Shown here one piece after another: positions 24,956 to 62,292 of a stretch of DNA of 64,000 nucleotides. Under the pieces are notes generated by a model that did not search any database, was not told the DNA's origin, and saw only the letters and a list, made by a program, of their open reading frames with translations. A program made the position numbers and the translations under genes. Every line of letters starts with the position of its first letter. Position 1 is the stretch's first letter. Location of the stretch: positions 13,674-77,673 of IMG/VR virus record IMGVR_UViG_3300008267_000025. One strand, given 5' to 3'. The DNA is from a virus.

Positions 24956-25412
24956 AACACAATATAATCGTTTACGTCAAACGATTGATGACTTATATGA
25001 TAAGTTGAATCGTGGTGAAAAATTAACACCATATGATGAAATTAAATTTAAACGATTTTCAAAACATATTGAGAGAGGTGGTGATGAATCAGATTTTACT
25101 AATGATGAAATGGATTCAAACCCAAATGAAGGGATGGTGTTCAATTATGAATTAAATGGTAAAACATTTAAATTCGTATTTTCAGAAATAATAACAAATG
25201 AAAATGATATTGAACTTTCAGGTGAAATATTATATGATGGCGATAAATACCATGGTGTTATTGTAGTTGATAAATCAGGTTATTTAACAGATTTTGATTT
25301 TTATAATATCGATAATGTTGATAGTAAATTACAAGACATTTTAAAAAATGATAAAACTTATTATGAAATTGAGAATTTCATAATTGAAGAAATTGTACCT
25401 AAACTATTATGA
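24936..25412 (+). CDS. Hypothetical protein with leader
   Basis: MKIILTETQYNRL; IDDLYDKL motif resembles 2588 protein. Confidence 0.7.
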   Translation: MKIILTETQYNRLRQTIDDLYDKLNRGEKLTPYDEIKFKRFSKHIERGGDESDFTNDEMDSNPNEGMVFNYELNGKTFKFVFSEIITNENDIELSGEILYDGDKYHGVIVVDKSGYLTDFDFYNIDNVDSKLQDILKNDKTYYEIENFIIEEIVPKLL

Positions 25413-26452
25413 ATACATCTGAAAAATTAAAAAAATTAATAAATTCTTTAGGAATTCTAAATACAATACAACAATTTGGGGGATTTGATGAAGCCATTAA
25501 AATATTTTCTCGTTTTCCTGAATTAAAACCATTGATTGATGAGAAATTAGGTGGTAAATCGTATTTTAATATAATACCTGACAGTACGGGTGTTATTCGG
25601 TCATTTTTTAATTTTATAATACGTGATATCGATATTGATTATGAGGATTTCATTACATTAAACGTTGATTTTTTAATTGACTTCAACAATTTATCAGAAG
25701 ATGAAATTCAATTGTTGAAAGATTGGGTATATACACTTTGTTTAGACCTTGATTTTTATTATATAAAAACTAATGATAAACATTTTGAAGAAGGTCATGT
25801 TTCATTATATCCATATAGTTTTAATGGCGTTAAGTATAAACAAAATAGACTTAAAACTTACGATAATGATGAAAAAATATATAATATATTAACTAAGACA
25901 GGATTTTTTAATAAAAATATTAACGAATCGATTCAATTTTTAAAAGAAAGTTCCATTTATAAAAAAGGTTATAGTCTTTCTCCAAGTTCTTGGTTGAAAT
26001 CGTTTATAAAAACTGAGGAAGGCGATTCAGTTAATAAAGGTCAACCGATGTTAAATGCGTATGAAATTGCCGGTGATTTAACTATTGGATATGGTCACAC
26101 AACAGGTGATGTTTTACCAACTGTCACGTCAGGTATGAAAATAACTAAAAATCAAGCTGAAACAATATTAAATAATGATTTAAGTTATTCTGCGAATTGT
26201 GTTAGACGTATTTTTAAAGAATGGGAAGATAATGGAATTAATGTACCAATAACTCAAAATATGTTTGATGTGTTAGTATCATTAACATTTAATGCTGGAT
26301 GTGGGTCGGTTAGAACTTCCGCCTTTATTAAATCATTAAAACGAAAAAAATATAAAACAGCAGCTGAACAAATTAAAACATTTAATGTTAAATCAGGTTA
26401 TAAAGGTCTAATTAATAGAAGACAACAAGAATCTGAAAAATTTATCTCTTAA
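25409..26452 (+). CDS. Protein with C-terminal GH24 phage lysozyme domain
   Basis: FIKTEEG, TIGYGHT, ITQNMFDVLVSLTFNAG, GLINRRQQE. Confidence 0.88.
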   Translation: MNTSEKLKKLINSLGILNTIQQFGGFDEAIKIFSRFPELKPLIDEKLGGKSYFNIIPDSTGVIRSFFNFIIRDIDIDYEDFITLNVDFLIDFNNLSEDEIQLLKDWVYTLCLDLDFYYIKTNDKHFEEGHVSLYPYSFNGVKYKQNRLKTYDNDEKIYNILTKTGFFNKNINESIQFLKESSIYKKGYSLSPSSWLKSFIKTEEGDSVNKGQPMLNAYEIAGDLTIGYGHTTGDVLPTVTSGMKITKNQAETILNNDLSYSANCVRRIFKEWEDNGINVPITQNMFDVLVSLTFNAGCGSVRTSAFIKSLKRKKYKTAAEQIKTFNVKSGYKGLINRRQQESEKFIS

Positions 26453-27343: not shown

Positions 27344-27724
27344 ATGTTTATAATAGGTTTAATATTGGTCTTATTATCAGGAATTGCTGAAGCGATTATG
27401 GATAAAATCCAATTTCATTTTGATAAATCAATTTTTGTAAATTACAATCAAGACTTTTGGAATCCTACTTTATCTTGGAAAAATAAATGGAGGTCGGATT
27501 TGAAAACTGAGAAATTTATATGGTCATCCAGTTTATTTGTTTTCGTAACAGACGGTTGGCATTTGTCTAAATTTTTTAGAAATCTATTTTTATTTGTCGG
27601 TATACCAATCGTCTGTTACTACTCAGATAATATTATATTAAGTTGTATTATTTGTAGAATATGTTTCGGTATTAGTTTCACATTTTTTTTTAATGTGATT
27701 TTTAAGCGAAGTCATCAACATTAA
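27344..27724 (+). CDS. Membrane protein
   Basis: Hydrophobic; SWKNKW...TDGWH motif. Confidence 0.65.
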   Translation: MFIIGLILVLLSGIAEAIMDKIQFHFDKSIFVNYNQDFWNPTLSWKNKWRSDLKTEKFIWSSSLFVFVTDGWHLSKFFRNLFLFVGIPIVCYYSDNIILSCIICRICFGISFTFFFNVIFKRSHQH

Positions 27725-28505
27725 ATGATTTTGAAGCCGCTATTGCTTCATCACTACTAAACTTACTTTTACCGCCGGCGTTAATATTTGCGAAATATTC
27801 GGCAGCTTCTTCCTTAGAATTAAATTTAGGTAGGCTTGAAGCTGGTTTATCATTAGTTAAAAACTTAATAGCTATTTTTGCTGAAATTTCAGGTTTATTT
27901 ACTAATTCAGGATTTGATATTAAATCAACCCCTATCATATCTCCGTATTTTTTATAATTACCTCTACCTGTTAAACCATTCAAACCTCTTCCAATATATT
28001 TCCAACCATCACCAGGTTCGGTATTACCTAAACGAATACCTGAATCTTTACCATAAACAGTTTCAAAAAATAATTTATCATCTTTTTTAATTGCTGTTAA
28101 TTCTTCATCTGAAAATTTAGAAACACGATTACCAAAAATACTTCTAATTCTTGAATTACTTGTATTAGAGTATGAAATTTCATTTTGAGGTTTAAAACCA
28201 CTTTCTTTTTTAATGACTGATAAAATACCAATTTGTTGTAATGGGTCTTTAATACCTTCATTCTTCATTTCATCTACAATATATTTAATCATTTCTTTTT
28301 CATTAGCGTTAAATGAACCAGTATTAAAATCGGTATCAATTTGAGATGGTTTATCTTTTAAGTGTTTTTTAGCAGAATCTATCACATTTTGTAAAAAATC
28401 AGTTTTATTTAAAACGATATCAGATAATGAATCTGATTCATTTAAATTATACATACGTTTAATCTCATTTTTTTCAGACTCAGTTATTATTAATTTTTTT
28501 TTCAT
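27702..28505 (-). CDS. GH19-family (chitinase/lysozyme-like) glycoside hydrolase with leader
   Basis: KESGF..NE, GDGWKYIGRGLNGLTGRGNY, DLISNPELV. Confidence 0.85.
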   Translation of the reverse strand: MKKKLIITESEKNEIKRMYNLNESDSLSDIVLNKTDFLQNVIDSAKKHLKDKPSQIDTDFNTGSFNANEKEMIKYIVDEMKNEGIKDPLQQIGILSVIKKESGFKPQNEISYSNTSNSRIRSIFGNRVSKFSDEELTAIKKDDKLFFETVYGKDSGIRLGNTEPGDGWKYIGRGLNGLTGRGNYKKYGDMIGVDLISNPELVNKPEISAKIAIKFLTNDKPASSLPKFNSKEEAAEYFANINAGGKSKFSSDEAIAASKSFNVDDFA

Positions 28506-28973: not shown

Positions 28974-29411
28974 TTAATTGTTTTCTACCACTTCAAGTAC
29001 TTCCAACTCAAAGATTAATTTTTTACCGGCTAATGGATGATTCGCATCAACAACAACGGTAGTTTCTTTCACATCAGTAACTCTAACATTAATTGGAGTT
29101 CCGTTAGGTGCTATAGCTTGTAAAGTTTCACCCACTTTAACATTTTCAGGTACATGGTCAATAGGAACTTCAGAAATTAATCTTTCATTTAATTCGCCGT
29201 AAGCGTTTTCAGGAGAAATTTCAATAGTCTTTTTTTCACCTACTGACATTTCAAATAAACCTGTTTCAAAACCATTAATTAATTTACCTTCACCCAATTT
29301 AGCAGTTAATGGTTCACGACCTTCAGTTAATGAAGTGTCAAAAATTGTACCGTCTTCTAATTTTCCTGTGTAGTGTACTTTTACTGTATCACCATTTGTA
29401 ATTTTTCTCAT
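28974..29411 (-). CDS. FKBP-type peptidyl-prolyl isomerase (SlyD/FkpB-like)
   Basis: VKVHYTGKLEDGTIFDTS, PENAYG, VDANHPLAGK. Confidence 0.95.
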   Translation of the reverse strand: MRKITNGDTVKVHYTGKLEDGTIFDTSLTEGREPLTAKLGEGKLINGFETGLFEMSVGEKKTIEISPENAYGELNERLISEVPIDHVPENVKVGETLQAIAPNGTPINVRVTDVKETTVVVDANHPLAGKKLIFELEVLEVVENN

Positions 29412-31504: not shown

Positions 31505-31584
31505 TTACAATAACAACAAAGTAAACCCTTAAATTTAATTATTTAAGGGTTTTTTATTTTTAAGATATTTATAGTAAAACTATT

Positions 31585-33348
31585 ATGCCAATTTTTAGTA
31601 AAACTTCAAAATATTGTTTTTACATAACAGTTATGATTATGTTTATTTTTTTGGGTATCAAAACATTGGTGGTATTTGAATTAATACATTTTTCATCTAA
31701 AATTAAATGGGTGGAATTTTTTTGTATTTCATTCTTTGTACCATTTTTTCTTATATTAATGAGAGAATATTATAATAAGAATAAAGAGTCTGTTAAGTTA
31801 AATCAATATTCAAAGTTATTAAATGAAACATTAATTAGATTGACCCATCATAATTTATTTTACGATGGAAAATTAGTTGAGGGCGGGAAATTACTAACTA
31901 AAGAAGTTACTAAAACATTATCAGTTGATAGATGTTCTATATGGTTATATAACGATAAAAATACCTCTATAATATGTTCTCAATTATATGATATAACAAC
32001 TAATACATGGAGTAATGGGTTTGAATTATATGAGAAGGATTATAAACCTTACTTCGATGATTTAAGAAAAAATGGGATAATATCGGCTAATGATGTTACT
32101 ACTCATCCGGCAACTATCTGTTTCAACGAAACGTACACAAATCCGTTAGGGATTAAATCAATTTTAGACGTTCCTATCATTTATAAGGGAACTATGATAG
32201 GTGTTATATGTATTGAAAGTTTGAAATTAAGAGAATGGAATAAAATCGAAATAAATTTCACCGAAATGTTATCATCATTATTTTCATTTACGTATTCAGT
32301 TAAAGAAACTAATGATATTAAAAATGAACTATCTGAATTTGAGAATTTTGTCAATAAGTCAGTATTAGTAAGTAAAACCGATAAAAGAGGTAGAATTACA
32401 TATGTTAACGATAAGTTCCAAGAAGTCTCAGGATATAGTTTTGAAGAAACTATTGGTAAAGACCATAATATTATTAATTCAGGTGTACACACTTCTAAAT
32501 TTTGGAAAAATATGTATAAAACCGTTAAAAACGGTGAGATTTGGAATGATTTAGTAACTAATAAACGTAAAAATGGTGAATTATATTGGGTTGATACCTA
32601 TATCAAAGGTGTATTTAAAAACAATCGTTTAATTGGGTATTTGTCAATTAGACAAGATGTTACTGATTTATATAAAAATATTAATGAGATTAGTAAAAAG
32701 AACACCTATTTAGAACACGCCTCGAAGATTTTAAGACACGATATGCACTCAGGTATAAACACATATATCCCAAGAGGTTTAAGTTCGTTAGAACGAAGAT
32801 TATCCCCCGAAGATATAGAAAGATTAAAACTTGAGATTCCAATAAGATTGTTAAAAGAAGGGTTAAAACATACTCAAAAAGTTTATAAAGGTGTCTACGA
32901 ATTTACTAATTTAGTAAAACATGATTCTGATTTATCTAAAGAAAAATTTAATCTAAAGGAAATCCTAACATCTTTTTTATCATCCACCGCTTATTCAAGT
33001 CAGGTATCTATTGGTACATTACCTACTATTGAAGTTAATGAATCTTTATTTTGTACGGCAATAGATAACTTAATTCGTAATGGTTTACGATATAATGATT
33101 CTGAAAGTAAAATCGTTAAAATATATATGGATGACGATAATCATTTAACTATTCAAGATAATGGTCGAGGTATGACACAAGAAGAATTTGAAATATACTC
33201 AAAACCGTATAATAGAAAACCAAATCAAAAGGAATCCGGTACAGGTTTAGGTTTAAACATATGTATAGCAATTTTAAATGAACATGGGTTTACCATTACT
33301 TGTGAAAAAAATGAAATTGGAACTAAATTAAAAATTAAAATAAAATAA
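31585..33348 (+). CDS. Sensor histidine kinase (2TM-GAF-PAS-HisKA-HATPase)
   Basis: GAF (VDRCSIW..LGIKSILDVPI), PAS (ITYVNDKF..SGY..GKDH..NKRKNGELYWV), H-box LRHD, NLIRNG, DNGRG, GTGLGL. Confidence 0.93.
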   Translation: MPIFSKTSKYCFYITVMIMFIFLGIKTLVVFELIHFSSKIKWVEFFCISFFVPFFLILMREYYNKNKESVKLNQYSKLLNETLIRLTHHNLFYDGKLVEGGKLLTKEVTKTLSVDRCSIWLYNDKNTSIICSQLYDITTNTWSNGFELYEKDYKPYFDDLRKNGIISANDVTTHPATICFNETYTNPLGIKSILDVPIIYKGTMIGVICIESLKLREWNKIEINFTEMLSSLFSFTYSVKETNDIKNELSEFENFVNKSVLVSKTDKRGRITYVNDKFQEVSGYSFEETIGKDHNIINSGVHTSKFWKNMYKTVKNGEIWNDLVTNKRKNGELYWVDTYIKGVFKNNRLIGYLSIRQDVTDLYKNINEISKKNTYLEHASKILRHDMHSGINTYIPRGLSSLERRLSPEDIERLKLEIPIRLLKEGLKHTQKVYKGVYEFTNLVKHDSDLSKEKFNLKEILTSFLSSTAYSSQVSIGTLPTIEVNESLFCTAIDNLIRNGLRYNDSESKIVKIYMDDDNHLTIQDNGRGMTQEEFEIYSKPYNRKPNQKESGTGLGLNICIAILNEHGFTITCEKNEIGTKLKIKIK

Positions 33349-33349
33349 T

Positions 33350-34324
33350 ATGAATAAAAAATTTAGAGTACTATCAATTGATGGTGGAGGATTAAGAGGT
33401 ATTGTACCATTAATGATACTGAAAAGAATTGAAGAAATGTCAGGTAAACAAATATACGAATTATTTGACTTGATAGTTGGTACATCAACAGGAGGAATAA
33501 TAGCATGTGGTTTAACAGCTACTAAAGATGGTGAAACACCTTTTTTAAGGGTTGATAAATTAATTGAATTATACACAACAAAAGGTAAAAATATTTTCCC
33601 TAAGAAAGAAAACTTATTAACTAAGTTTAATTCATTAATTAATCCTAAATTTAGTGATAAAGGTTTGGATAAAGAATTAAAAGAATATTTTGAAGATATA
33701 ACATTAAGTCAGACTTTGAAACCGATTATTGTAACATCATACGATATCAATAATAATGAACCTTTAATTTTTAAAAGTAGGAAATCAGTTGAAGTAGGTT
33801 ATGATATAAAGTTAAAGGATGTATGTCGAGCAACATCAGCAGCACCAACTTATTTACCATCATATGAGTTAAATTATGCCGGTAAAAAAAGAATTTGTAT
33901 TGATGGTGGCGTTTATGTTAACAATCCTGTTATGGTTGCTATTTCAGATATTATCAGAAATAAATACGGAGTTGAAGGTATTCAATTAAGTGATATAACT
34001 GTTTTGTCATTAGGTACAGGTGTATATACAGAAAATTTAGGAATTAAAAAAACACCTAGCTGGGGATTACTTAACTGGGCCAAGCCAATAACTGATTTAA
34101 TGATGCAAGCCGTTTCAAAATCAGTTCATTATGAATGTAATGAATTATTGAATAACTATTTAAGACTTCAAATAGATATTGATAAAAAAGAAATGAGCGA
34201 TATGGCAGATTCTAGTCTAGAAACAAATATTTATATAAAAGAAAAAGTAAATAGTAAAATATTAAATAATCCAGAAGAAATGTATAAATTACAAGAATTC
34301 TTCAAACAAAATATACAAAATTAA
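33350..34324 (+). CDS. Patatin-like phospholipase
   Basis: DGGGLRG, GTSTG, SAAPTY, DGG. Confidence 0.93.
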   Translation: MNKKFRVLSIDGGGLRGIVPLMILKRIEEMSGKQIYELFDLIVGTSTGGIIACGLTATKDGETPFLRVDKLIELYTTKGKNIFPKKENLLTKFNSLINPKFSDKGLDKELKEYFEDITLSQTLKPIIVTSYDINNNEPLIFKSRKSVEVGYDIKLKDVCRATSAAPTYLPSYELNYAGKKRICIDGGVYVNNPVMVAISDIIRNKYGVEGIQLSDITVLSLGTGVYTENLGIKKTPSWGLLNWAKPITDLMMQAVSKSVHYECNELLNNYLRLQIDIDKKEMSDMADSSLETNIYIKEKVNSKILNNPEEMYKLQEFFKQNIQN

Positions 34325-34325
34325 T

Positions 34326-34763
34326 ATGATAGAATCAATATTATTAGTGGATGATGAAGATTTATTCCATTTGGTTTTTGAAGACGCATGTTCTTTATTA
34401 GACATTAGTTTATCTCTAAAATCAGTTAAAAGTGCAGATGAAGCTGCCAAAATGTTCAAAAAATGGTTTGAATCCGGTAATAAAAAAGAAAAACCTGAAT
34501 GTGTATTCGTTGATTTAAACATCATAGGTTCATCATTTGATGGCATAGAATTAGTTAGAAAAATTAATTTTGAATATGGTAATCATGTTATTATCGGTAT
34601 AATTTCTTCCTCCAACGAATCATCTGAACAACATAAAGCTCTTGATGCCGGTGCACAATTTTGGTTAGTTAAATCAGATGAAATTGAGCCGAGATTAGAA
34701 GAATTTAAAAAAGATTATCCTGGTTATAAAAATAAAACGTTACCATTTAAAGTTTACAAATGA
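34326..34763 (+). CDS. Single-domain response regulator (receiver)
   Basis: LLVDDE, FVDLN (phospho-Asp), ISSS, GA..WLVK. Confidence 0.9.
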   Translation: MIESILLVDDEDLFHLVFEDACSLLDISLSLKSVKSADEAAKMFKKWFESGNKKEKPECVFVDLNIIGSSFDGIELVRKINFEYGNHVIIGIISSSNESSEQHKALDAGAQFWLVKSDEIEPRLEEFKKDYPGYKNKTLPFKVYK

Positions 34764-35437
34764 TTAATTTTAGTCCTGAAACCAAAAAACAATTAATTGA
34801 CTTATATCATGAAAAAAGTATAGGTTTAGAAGGTAATATATTAAAATTAATCAATACTGAAAATGATAAAGATTTTTCAAAATACATTAAAAAATGTATT
34901 GATAATGATAAATCTAACCGAAGAAAAAGACTTGATGTAACAAAAAAAATACAAAGTCAGAATAATGAATTGATTTCATTAAATGATGAAAATAAACGTA
35001 TTCTTGATGAACTACAAGTAAGTCTGACTAATACCGAAAATTCTAAAACTCAAATTGAAGAACAAAATAACGAATTATTGTCTTGGAAAGAAAAAAATGA
35101 ACAAATTCAAAACGAGTTACAAGAAGAAATGAAGAAATCTGAAATTGCTCGTTCTGAAGCCGAAAACTCTAAAGAAATCGCATTAAATAATTTAGATGTT
35201 TTACAGAAAAAAATTCAAACTCAACTAATGGGTAAAATAGTTTTAGTAGCGTTAGGGGTTATTGGGTTTGTCGGATTAACAACTACCATATTATATGTTA
35301 TTTCAATAGTTTTGGGAAAAGAAACTGAAAATATCGGAACCGCTTGGTTCAATATATGTGGGATTTTATTAACTAACGCTTTTAGTATTGTTGGTACTAT
35401 TATGGGTGTTAAGTATAGTAGTAACGAGAAACCATAA
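34760..35437 (+). CDS. Coiled-coil protein with C-terminal 2 TM helices
   Basis: Long Q/E/N-rich heptads followed by two hydrophobic segments; ATGA overlap with the regulator. Confidence 0.75.
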   Translation: MINFSPETKKQLIDLYHEKSIGLEGNILKLINTENDKDFSKYIKKCIDNDKSNRRKRLDVTKKIQSQNNELISLNDENKRILDELQVSLTNTENSKTQIEEQNNELLSWKEKNEQIQNELQEEMKKSEIARSEAENSKEIALNNLDVLQKKIQTQLMGKIVLVALGVIGFVGLTTTILYVISIVLGKETENIGTAWFNICGILLTNAFSIVGTIMGVKYSSNEKP

Positions 35438-35707: not shown

Positions 35708-39019
<3,312 letters not shown>

Positions 39020-60259: not shown

Positions 60260-60287
60260 AAAAAAGGGGTTTAAAACCCCTTTTTTT
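60257..60287. terminator. Bidirectional terminator
   Basis: A-tract GGGGTT-taa-AACCCC T-tract between convergent genes. Confidence 0.75.
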
Positions 60288-62292
60288 ATTTTGTAATCTC
60301 TGTTATTTTGACAACTTCTTCTTCAATGAATAATTTGTATTCGGTGTTTTCTTTAATTTCACCTTTTAGAACTTCTTCTGAAATAAAGTCTTCGATTTTA
60401 TCTTGGATAGCACGTTTTAGTGGTCTAGCACCATATAATTCATCAAAACCAACATCTGAAATAAATTCAATTATAGTATCATCAAATTTAAAGTTATATT
60501 TTAATGAGGTTAAACGTGCTGTTAATTTTTCAAGTTCAACAACAACTATTTTTTTAACATCATCTTTTTCTAAACTGTTAAACATAATTACTTCATCAAT
60601 ACGATTTAAAAACTCAGGTGCGAAGAATTTTTGTAACTCCTTTTTAAGGATATCACGTTTTTGTTCTTCTTCAACATACGATTTAGAACTACCTCCGAAA
60701 CCAATACCTGTTCCAAATTCTTGTAGTTTTCTAACACCAATATTCGTTGTCATGATGATGATACAGTTCTTAAAATTAATTTTTCTACCTAAACTATCAG
60801 TAATATACCCATCATCTAAAACTTGTAATAAACTTGAGAAGATATCTTTGTTAGCTTTTTCTACCTCATCAAATAAAATAACCGAATAAGGTTTATTTTT
60901 AACTTGTTCTGTTAATTGACCACCCTCGTCATGCCCTACATATCCCGGAGGTGCTCCGATTAATCTTGAAATGGTATGTTTTTCTTGATACTCTGACATA
61001 TCAATTCTAATTAAAGCATCTTCACTACCAAAAATTTGTTTTGCTAATTGTTTAGCCAAATACGTTTTACCAACACCGGTTGAACCTAAGAATATGAATG
61101 AACCTATTGGTTTGTTAGGGTCTTTAATACCTAATCTATTTCTTCTAATTGATTTTGATATTTTAGATACCGCACCTGATTGTCCAATTACTTTAGTATT
61201 TAAATTATTTTCCATTTCGGACAATAATTTAGTTTCGTCAGAATTTAATTTTGAAACAGGTATTTTTGTCATATTAGAAACTACATCATAAACTAAATCT
61301 ACAGATATTTCTTTTCTATTAACACTTAACTCTTCTTCAAATTTTTTCTTTTCAATTTCTAATTTGTTTAGAATTCGTTTTTCTTTATCTCTAAGATTGG
61401 CGGCTTCTTCATAATCTTGTCGTTTAACAACATCAAGTTTTTCTTTTTTAATTTCTTGAGCTTCATTTTTAAGGTCTTCAATTGATTTAGGTACTTTAAC
61501 TTCAACTTGACTACGTGCACCAACTTCATCAAGAATATCAAATGCCTTATCAGGAAATTCTCTATCTGTAATATATCTTTCAGCTAATTCAACACAAGTA
61601 TTCAACACTTCATCAGAATAGATTACTTTATGATAATTTTCATATCTATCTTTAGCATTTTTCAAAATTTGTAATGTTTCTTCTTTAGTTGCCGAATCAA
61701 CAATTACTTTTTGGAATCTTCTTTCAAGAGCACCATCTTTTTCGAAATTTTTACGATATTCATCAATAGTTGTTGCACCAACACATTGTATTTCACCCCT
61801 AGCTAATGCCGGTTTAAATATGTTAGAAGCATCCATAGTTCCTGATGTATTACCAGCACCTACTATTGTATGGATTTCATCGATAAATACAATAATATTA
61901 GGGTTAGACTGAAGTTCTTCGATGATAACTTTCATCCTTTCTTCAAATTGACCTCTGTATTTTGTACCGGCAACGATAGATGTCATATCCAATGATACTA
62001 TTCTTTTATCCATTAAATTCCTTGGACATTCTCCGTTTAAAATTTTAATAGCTAATCCCTCAACTATTGCTGTTTTACCACAACCTGGTTCACCAATAAT
62101 TATTGGATTATTTTTCTTCCTTCTTGATAAAATTTGTGCGATTCTAGATATCTCACGTTCTCTACCAATAACGGGGTCAATCTTACCTTGTTCAGCAAGT
62201 TTTATTAAATCCTTACTAAAATTATCTAGTACAGGTGTTGAGGATTCTGAACCACTTTTGTTATTGTTATCATTATTTGCAAATTCAATCAT
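60286..62292 (-). CDS. clpC: ClpC-type AAA+ unfoldase lacking the N-terminal domain
   Basis: Two Walker A motifs ([16 protein letters not shown]), UVR middle domain ([11 protein letters not shown]), IGF loop (GIGFG), GARPL. Confidence 0.88.

Follow-up and report, generated by a model that had tools for sequence, protein, structure and literature searches.

The 64-kb window analysed here is part of a 77.7-kb record from an uncultured virus (IMG/VR IMGVR_UViG_3300008267_000025), and our subject is a four-gene operon within it that encodes a sensor histidine kinase, a patatin, a response regulator made of a receiver alone, and a coiled-coil protein with a two-transmembrane (2TM) hairpin. CheckV estimates the completeness of the record at 26%, which implies a jumbo phage of about 300 kb; the record is about a quarter of a genome, and absences inside it carry little weight. 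The window has a GC content of about 27% and contains four tRNA genes. A metallophosphoesterase gene flanks the operon upstream and dnaK flanks it downstream. The features of the operon, with protein lengths in amino acids (aa) and distances in nucleotides (nt), are as follows.

31523..31552, plus strand: terminator-like hairpin with a T-run, a 12-pair stem and then TTTATTTTTA
31566-31572, plus strand: TATTTAT motif, candidate phage promoter element, 19 nt 5' of the kinase ATG
31585-33348, plus strand: kinase, 587 aa
33350-34324, plus strand: patatin, 324 aa
34326-34763, plus strand: receiver, 145 aa
34760-35437, plus strand: coiled-coil/2TM hairpin protein, 225 aa

An earlier note on this DNA had described four packed genes behind a TATTTAT promoter. 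The coordinates of the open reading frames (ORFs) agree, with gaps of 1, 1 and -4 nt, and the domain make-up given there is borne out by Pfam for the kinase, patatin and receiver and by hydropathy for the 2TM segments. The terminator-like hairpin is predicted to close the upstream metallophosphoesterase unit, and the TATTTAT motif follows directly on it. This motif is found at most 45 nt upstream of 28/92 genes, compared with 2.4% of random windows and 9 occurrences on the opposite strand of the same regions, and is thus positional; on the coding strand, it stands 11-28 nt 5' of about 30% of gene starts. The motif claimed for the operon is therefore present and remains a candidate promoter element. 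Since a scan upstream of the window's genes found no copy before the patatin, receiver or hairpin genes, the operon is likely a single transcription unit.

Hydropathy of the kinase gives two hydrophobic segments, at about residues 10-38 and 40-61, and Pfam assigns GAF (104-234, 6.7e-13), PAS_9 (260-361, 2.7e-12) and HATPase_c (488-586, 5.8e-15) domains, the last (PF02518) scoring 56.1 bits against a cut-off of 26.4. The H-box, RHDMHSGINTYIPRG (RHDMHSG, H385), is invariant in 16 relatives (alignment A2) yet unmatched by Pfam HisKA at E 0.01 or better, so that "atypical", as the earlier note called it, is a fair description; the position and helical context of H385 fit a divergent DHp domain. 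The N, G1 and G2 boxes (N495/N499, D525-G527-G529 and G552-G554-G556) are likewise invariant in the 16 sequences of A2. The resemblance of the PAS domain to those of Aer and NifL, which bind flavin adenine dinucleotide (FAD), also holds, with solved matches to Aer (8dik, 1.4e-21) and NifL (2gj3, 5.9e-11) and the closest of all to MmoS PAS-A (3ewk, 1.8e-32); the NifL model TIGR02938 matches the kinase over PAS1 only (2.9e-18). By sequence, then, the domain belongs to the FAD-PAS group and is predicted to bind flavin. It differs from its MmoS, Aer and NifL counterparts in belonging to a phage kinase, where it follows a GAF domain.

The receiver matches Response_reg (PF00072, 3.5e-10, 40.5 bits against a cut-off of 30.2) as its sole Pfam domain and has a conserved C-terminal extension and no hydrophobic segment by hydropathy, in keeping with the claim that it has no output domain. 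A set of 54 distinct relatives, 68-88% identical to the receiver of the window, keeps residues D9, D10, D63, S94-96 and K116 without exception. Because the key residues of the kinase (H385 and the N, G1 and G2 boxes) do not vary among 16 sequences, nor those of the receiver among 54, the phage-borne phosphorelay looks intact and functional, and phosphotransfer between the two proteins would be expected; it has no DNA-binding output. The earlier note had also seen no cyclase or DNA-binding regulator next to the operon, and the flanking metallophosphoesterase and dnaK genes indeed hold no DNA-binding regulator. Single-domain receivers that act by protein contact are well known, such as CheY (on FliM), DivK and Rcp1. 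The phage protein is like these in being receiver-only, in its intact phospho-acceptor residues, in having a kinase encoded alongside and in its non-transcriptional output, and is unlike them in that its proposed target belongs to a virus-only family and that chemotaxis or cell-cycle partners are missing.

Neither the operon nor the kinase has a relative among GenBank phages by blastn and tblastn, and a scan of viral contigs with the kinase as single query returned no match; the alignment-based scan succeeded. In a profile search with alignment A2, 80 viral loci were examined of 262 confirmed matches, and 75 of the 80 hold both the C-terminus of the kinase and the receiver. The region between the two genes in these 75 loci is occupied as follows.

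56/75 loci: nothing between kinase and receiver (spacer 2-73 nt)
11/75 loci: a second kinase with a different sensor part
3/75 loci: a YceI-like gene (PF04264, 2.2e-45)
5/75 loci: a patatin

The five patatin loci are near-identical copies from one lineage, and in four relatives of 76-100% completeness no patatin was found anywhere. A further 105-kb contig encodes both a patatin (P0002, 84% identical) and a kinase (P0122, 89% identical). In a tree of kinase, receiver and hairpin protein, the window groups at 100% support with L164/L165, which have a patatin, and L225, which has none, meaning that the patatin was either gained once and then lost or gained twice; the trees are quick and FastTree builds, and their support values are Shimodaira-Hasegawa-like only. 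Relatives that have no patatin carry a GTATTTAT motif in the spacer between kinase and receiver, and in the window this spacer is displaced by the insert. Synteny thus keeps only a part of the module as the earlier note had drawn it: kinase, receiver and hairpin protein are constant, and the patatin is variable. We take the conserved unit to be these three genes and not four, and the patatin is very probably a lineage-specific insert.

The third member of the unit, the 225-aa hairpin protein, matches no Pfam family. Hydropathy gives two hydrophobic helices (152-187 and 197-217) and a tail, KYSSNEKP, making it a small phage membrane protein whose TM helices and charged C-terminal tail are a feature of holins. 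An AlphaFold2 model from 26 relatives (mean predicted local distance difference test score 85.5) has a small N-domain, a long helix (37-185) that continues into TM1, a short loop and TM2; the N-domain comprises residues 1-60, with the long coiled-coil helix behind it. TM2 is the best-conserved stretch and carries an invariant polar motif (W196, N198, then ILLTN.FSI.GTI.G.KY). Structure searches with this model returned only generic helical hairpins and coiled coils (Z up to 8.8). The family is virus-only in the ESM Atlas; among 1.84 billion representatives, a profile search picked out only 275 members.

Comparison among relatives, together with the conserved TM2 and the virus-only range of the family, points to the hairpin protein as the output of the relay. 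First, receiver and hairpin genes are adjacent in 73/73 loci that have both, mostly overlapping, with a gap of 0 in 41. Second, the coiled coil and 2TM hairpin also occur fused to sensor domains, as GAF-coiled coil-2TM in 3 viral loci (L325-327), where the GAF is 52% identical to that of the kinase, as PAS-PAS-coiled coil-2TM in at least 80 viral loci (L413-492), and as PAS-coiled coil-2TM in protein P0293. No kinase core or receiver is present in the recovered loci of the GAF and PAS-PAS forms, and the fusions argue that the coiled-coil/2TM hairpin is a signal-controlled output module. The N-domain and coiled coil also precede a HisKA-HATPase core (40% identity, 7e-19), which marks the N-domain as a signalling domain. 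Proteins of this last type (P0363, P0366, P0377, P0382 and P0388) are 318-349 aa long, with N-domain and coiled coil joined to an ordinary HisKA-HATPase core, and a scan of viral contigs found none of them. The hairpin can be driven by a fused sensor or, in the three-gene unit, presumably by the receiver through the N-domain, and we consider it likely that the hairpin protein is the relay output. The earlier note had the relay gate a phospholipase and/or a membrane protein; the comparative evidence favours the membrane protein and not the phospholipase.

A connection of this output to lysis is suggested by its neighbours. When all neighbours of the 80 kinase loci were clustered, the commonest were a PG_binding_1+GH19 protein (phrog_181 endolysin, 2.9e-64), a T4-type lysozyme (PF00959, 7.9e-42) and a 200-aa protein assigned to phrog_3000, which has no Pfam family and also matches the C-terminal part of the endolysin PHROG phrog_33083 (3e-9). 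The module directly adjoins an endolysin-type gene in 47/80 loci, or in 37 of the 57 with at least two ORFs on each side, and the fused forms have an endolysin homologue at most 1 kb away in 59/83 loci. Since three non-homologous hydrolases recur on either side and on either strand, a functional linkage is indicated rather than inherited order. Encoded at L169:8721-9332 and in 22 other loci, often directly beside the module, the phrog_3000 protein has the motifs INIHKAG and WSAGCQV, which point to a His/Cys hydrolase and perhaps to another cell-wall enzyme in addition to the endolysin. The lysis role raised in the earlier note thus gains comparative support, and in the window itself no endolysin adjoins the operon. 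Signal-gated lysis control is our best reading of these data, and we judge the odds that it is the module's purpose to be about even.

The patatin (PF01734, 4.5e-26) has been described as intact, and GTSTG (G44-T-S46-T-G48), DGG (D185) and the GGGxRG loop, including the catalytic residues S46 and D185, are invariant in 17 patatins. It has no signal peptide and no TM segment by hydropathy. Patatins 55-66% identical to it occur in other jumbo phages in unrelated contexts, next to a CAP-domain gene, a non-specific endonuclease, gp32, an RNase R-like gene or an exonuclease. The jumbo-phage patatins all group together (support 100), and next to their clade stand chromosomal patatins of Bacteroidota, the nearest of which have housekeeping genes and no cyclase as neighbours; the rows L082 and L089 of this tree are wrong-strand ORFs and are to be disregarded. 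Single-query patatin scans of viral contigs and metagenomes returned no match, and a metagenome scan with alignment A1 yielded 80 loci, none with a kinase, receiver or hairpin gene beside the patatin. One 281-kb phage carries a patatin about 100 kb away from an orphan kinase with the same H-box, and no receiver was found in that record. We interpret the patatin as an intact cytoplasmic accessory lipase of this phage group, with its activity predicted from the conserved residues. It may be an accessory enzyme of membrane breakdown, as has been proposed for phage WO (PMC9203015); alternatively, it may scavenge host lipids, alongside the nucleases that adjoin the patatin elsewhere.

Putting these observations together, we propose that the membrane-anchored kinase would read an intracellular or membrane cue via its GAF and flavin-type (MmoS/NifL/Aer-like) PAS domains, autophosphorylate on H385 and pass the phosphate to D63 of the receiver-only regulator, which would then act on the hairpin protein, encoded by the overlapping gene that follows, through direct contact. 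The N-domain and long coiled coil would carry the signal to the 2TM hairpin in the inner membrane, most likely a holin or holin regulator, so that lysis would be timed by the state of the infected cell. The patatin gene, from an old clade found in jumbo phages, was very probably inserted exactly between kinase and receiver in the window and its closest kin; its product, co-transcribed and probably translationally coupled with the operon, is most likely an accessory membrane-degrading enzyme made simultaneously, and not a target of the phosphorelay. To this mechanism as a whole, a relay-controlled hairpin that times lysis with the patatin as accessory insert, we assign a probability of roughly 0.55.

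Several points weigh against it. The loci come from related phages, and the neighbour counts are hence not independent events. In the window, no endolysin gene is adjacent: its closest relatives have GH19 and YceI genes on the flanks of the kinase, both of which it lacks, and the nearest GH19-like gene lies 3 kb upstream. Searches matched the hairpin protein to neither a known holin family nor a specific fold, and at 225 aa, with a cytoplasmic part of 150 residues, it is unlike typical class II holins. The N-domain could itself be a sensor, and its contact with the receiver is our conjecture. Lastly, the junctions of the patatin are the same in two diverged lineages, which could reflect selection for its position in the operon.

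The alternative that survives best, although we hold it to be unlikely, accepts the three-gene unit as real and denies it a part in lysis control: the hairpin would modulate a host membrane process, such as the proton-motive force, a motor or secretion system, or superinfection exclusion, or would simply anchor the receiver, and the endolysin neighbourhood would be inherited order. It would suit the setting of the window operon among chaperone and host-takeover genes (FKBP, dnaK, metallophosphoesterase, CAP-domain) and the 28/80 loci with no endolysin nearby. It would also suit a weak, non-significant similarity of the hairpin to ExbB (NCBIfam, E 0.002) and GldLM (Foldseek, E 5.2); Pfam MotA_ExbB gives no match to the hairpin protein, and a candidate identity as ExbB, MotA or GldL was dropped. 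What inherited order would not easily explain is that the three endolysin types, on whichever side or strand, accompany both the relay and the fused forms.

A more specific version of our own proposal, which we regard as improbable in its entirety, has the flavin-PAS/GAF kinase read the redox or energy state of the infected cell and the receiver grip the N-domain of the hairpin, a new kind of holin-like protein, so that membrane opening is timed post-translationally; in this lineage the patatin of the operon would exploit or follow the opening and digest membrane lipids, giving a signal-gated lysis with two effectors that would have no known counterpart.

In the wiring put forward by the earlier note, the phosphorelay directly gates the patatin, with the phosphorylated receiver binding the phospholipase and activating or releasing it in a membrane-killing or abortive module. 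The position of the gene speaks for this: two lineages with only 66% identity both carry the patatin between kinase and receiver, at junctions of -4 to +7 nt. Ligand gating is established for CapV-type patatins, and in another phage a patatin of this clade has a cyclase gene 4 nt before it, so that regulated patatins may be usual in the clade. That cyclase is a 233-aa class III adenylate/guanylate cyclase domain protein (L012:6295-6993, PF00211 2.7e-23; L013 is the same phage), and neither the window nor any of the kinase loci encodes a homologue of it. Gating of the patatin is nevertheless hard to reconcile with its absence from 70/75 homologous operons and from the four near-complete relatives, or with L225, which is inside the patatin-bearing clade and has none; a patatin lacking from most such operons is an outcome that the earlier note had itself named as refuting. 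The identity of the receiver among relatives is 68-88% whether a patatin is beside it or not, the operon patatins have no extra domain compared with the stand-alone phage patatins (319-340 aa), and patatins of the same clade occupy unrelated contexts elsewhere. We therefore think it very improbable that the relay controls the patatin.

The analogy drawn earlier with the cyclic oligonucleotide-based antiphage signalling system (CBASS) suggests one more reading, in which the patatin is a CapV-like cyclic-nucleotide effector, a phage-borne remnant or decoy of a CBASS- or Pycsar-like system unrelated to the two-component genes. The patatin fold and the catalytic Ser-Asp dyad are common to both, the PADLOC CBASS phospholipase model PDLC00758 matches over the full length (1.2e-75), and so does the NCBIfam model CBASS_lipase (NF041079), at 196.4 bits, under its curated cut-off of 200. 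Among solved structures, the plant patatin 1oxw matches best (3.9e-30) and the CapV-type chains come behind it, at 3.8e-26 or weaker, and by sequence the protein appears as near to plant patatin as to CapV. Unlike CapV, it has no CD-NTase nearby: the 77.7-kb record, which covers about 26% of the genome, gave no match to either SMODS (PF18144) or a class III cyclase. Its clade lies beside Bacteroidota patatins that are not of CBASS. The analogy thus fails on membership, and even with the class III cyclase that adjoins the patatin of L012/L013, the idea of a CBASS remnant or decoy is the least probable that we considered.

Additional sensory proteins accompany the module in some phages. Paralogous kinases with the same divergent H-box and unrelated N-terminal parts lie between the main kinase and the receiver at L183:8366-9805, L189:2867-4321 and nine further loci, so that two inputs lead to one receiver. 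The orphan paralogue of the 281-kb phage (L163:7870-9357, minus strand) has a signal peptide, a coiled coil and one TM helix. A YceI-like (lipid/polyisoprenoid-binding) protein with no signal peptide is encoded in 15/80 loci, for instance at L164:5384-5914 and L178:7784-8308, either directly upstream of the kinase or between kinase and receiver, and may be accessory to sensing.

The wider window includes two lysis-type genes and a chaperone-rich complement that comprises an FKBP-type prolyl isomerase, dnaK and a ClpB-like double AAA+ protein.

25409..26452, plus strand: 347-aa protein with a C-terminal phage-lysozyme domain (Phage_lysozyme 9.8e-27; phrog_7 endolysin 4.4e-33)
27702..28505, minus strand: GH19-type endolysin-like gene (Glyco_hydro_19 29.2 bits; phrog_181 endolysin 1.3e-31)
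28974-29411, minus strand: FKBP-type prolyl isomerase gene
60286-62292, minus strand: ClpB-like double AAA+ gene

The GH19-like gene is 34% identical to the GH19 neighbour of the relatives and has a TATTTAT motif of its own. The dnaK gene is interrupted: about 1.5 kb separates its N part (35714-36322) from its C part (37862-39019) and holds an ORF of 362 aa, whose similarity to a TnsA-like endonuclease is weak (2.2e-4) and falls short of the Pfam cut-off. In L164, L191 and similar relatives, dnaK is a single ORF of about 620 aa, implying that the insertion is specific to the phage of the window.

Among known systems, the closest functional analogue would be lysis inhibition in T4, in which the holin T is paired with the antiholin RI and RI senses superinfection in the periplasm (PMC11413866). 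The two would share a signal-adjusted, holin-dependent lysis through protein-protein control of a membrane protein encoded near lysis genes. T4, however, uses the periplasmic RI and no phosphorelay, whereas the window encodes a cytoplasmic GAF/flavin-type PAS kinase and a receiver whose function we deduce from sequence comparison, and the hairpin protein is homologous to neither T nor RI. In wiring, the closest analogue would be the LytSR/LytST two-component systems, which control the holin-like LrgAB/CidAB proteins and respond to oxygen or metabolic state (PMC3507848). Here too a two-component system is wired to holin-like membrane proteins, but LytR and LytT are DNA-binding, transcriptional and bacterial, whereas the phage receiver has no output domain, presumably acts post-translationally and is viral. 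For the patatin, a comparison can be made with Wolbachia phage WO, for which a patatin-based lytic cassette has been proposed, with the patatin beside a small coiled-coil membrane protein (PMC9203015). In both cases, a phage patatin is encoded beside a coiled-coil membrane protein and a role in lysis is hypothesised; the likeness is one of description only, and the WO cassette has no kinase or receiver and a holin-like protein of fewer than 150 aa with one N-terminal TM helix. No description of a phage-borne module of kinase, receiver and membrane protein was found in the literature, most subscription journals being outside the search.

The domain-swapped relatives, in which a sensor is fused to the hairpin or the N-domain to a kinase core, amount to natural experiments on the route by which a signal reaches the 2TM hairpin. 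The patatin would be an example of how such modules acquire extra membrane-active cargo, and it is also a caution against inferring regulatory wiring from a single operon. The lysis timing known from phages depends on holin clocks and a small number of antiholins. A complete virus-encoded two-component relay with a non-transcriptional output at the membrane is kept in hundreds of uncultured jumbo phages; if our proposal is right, these phages would actively sense the physiology of the host to choose the time of burst.

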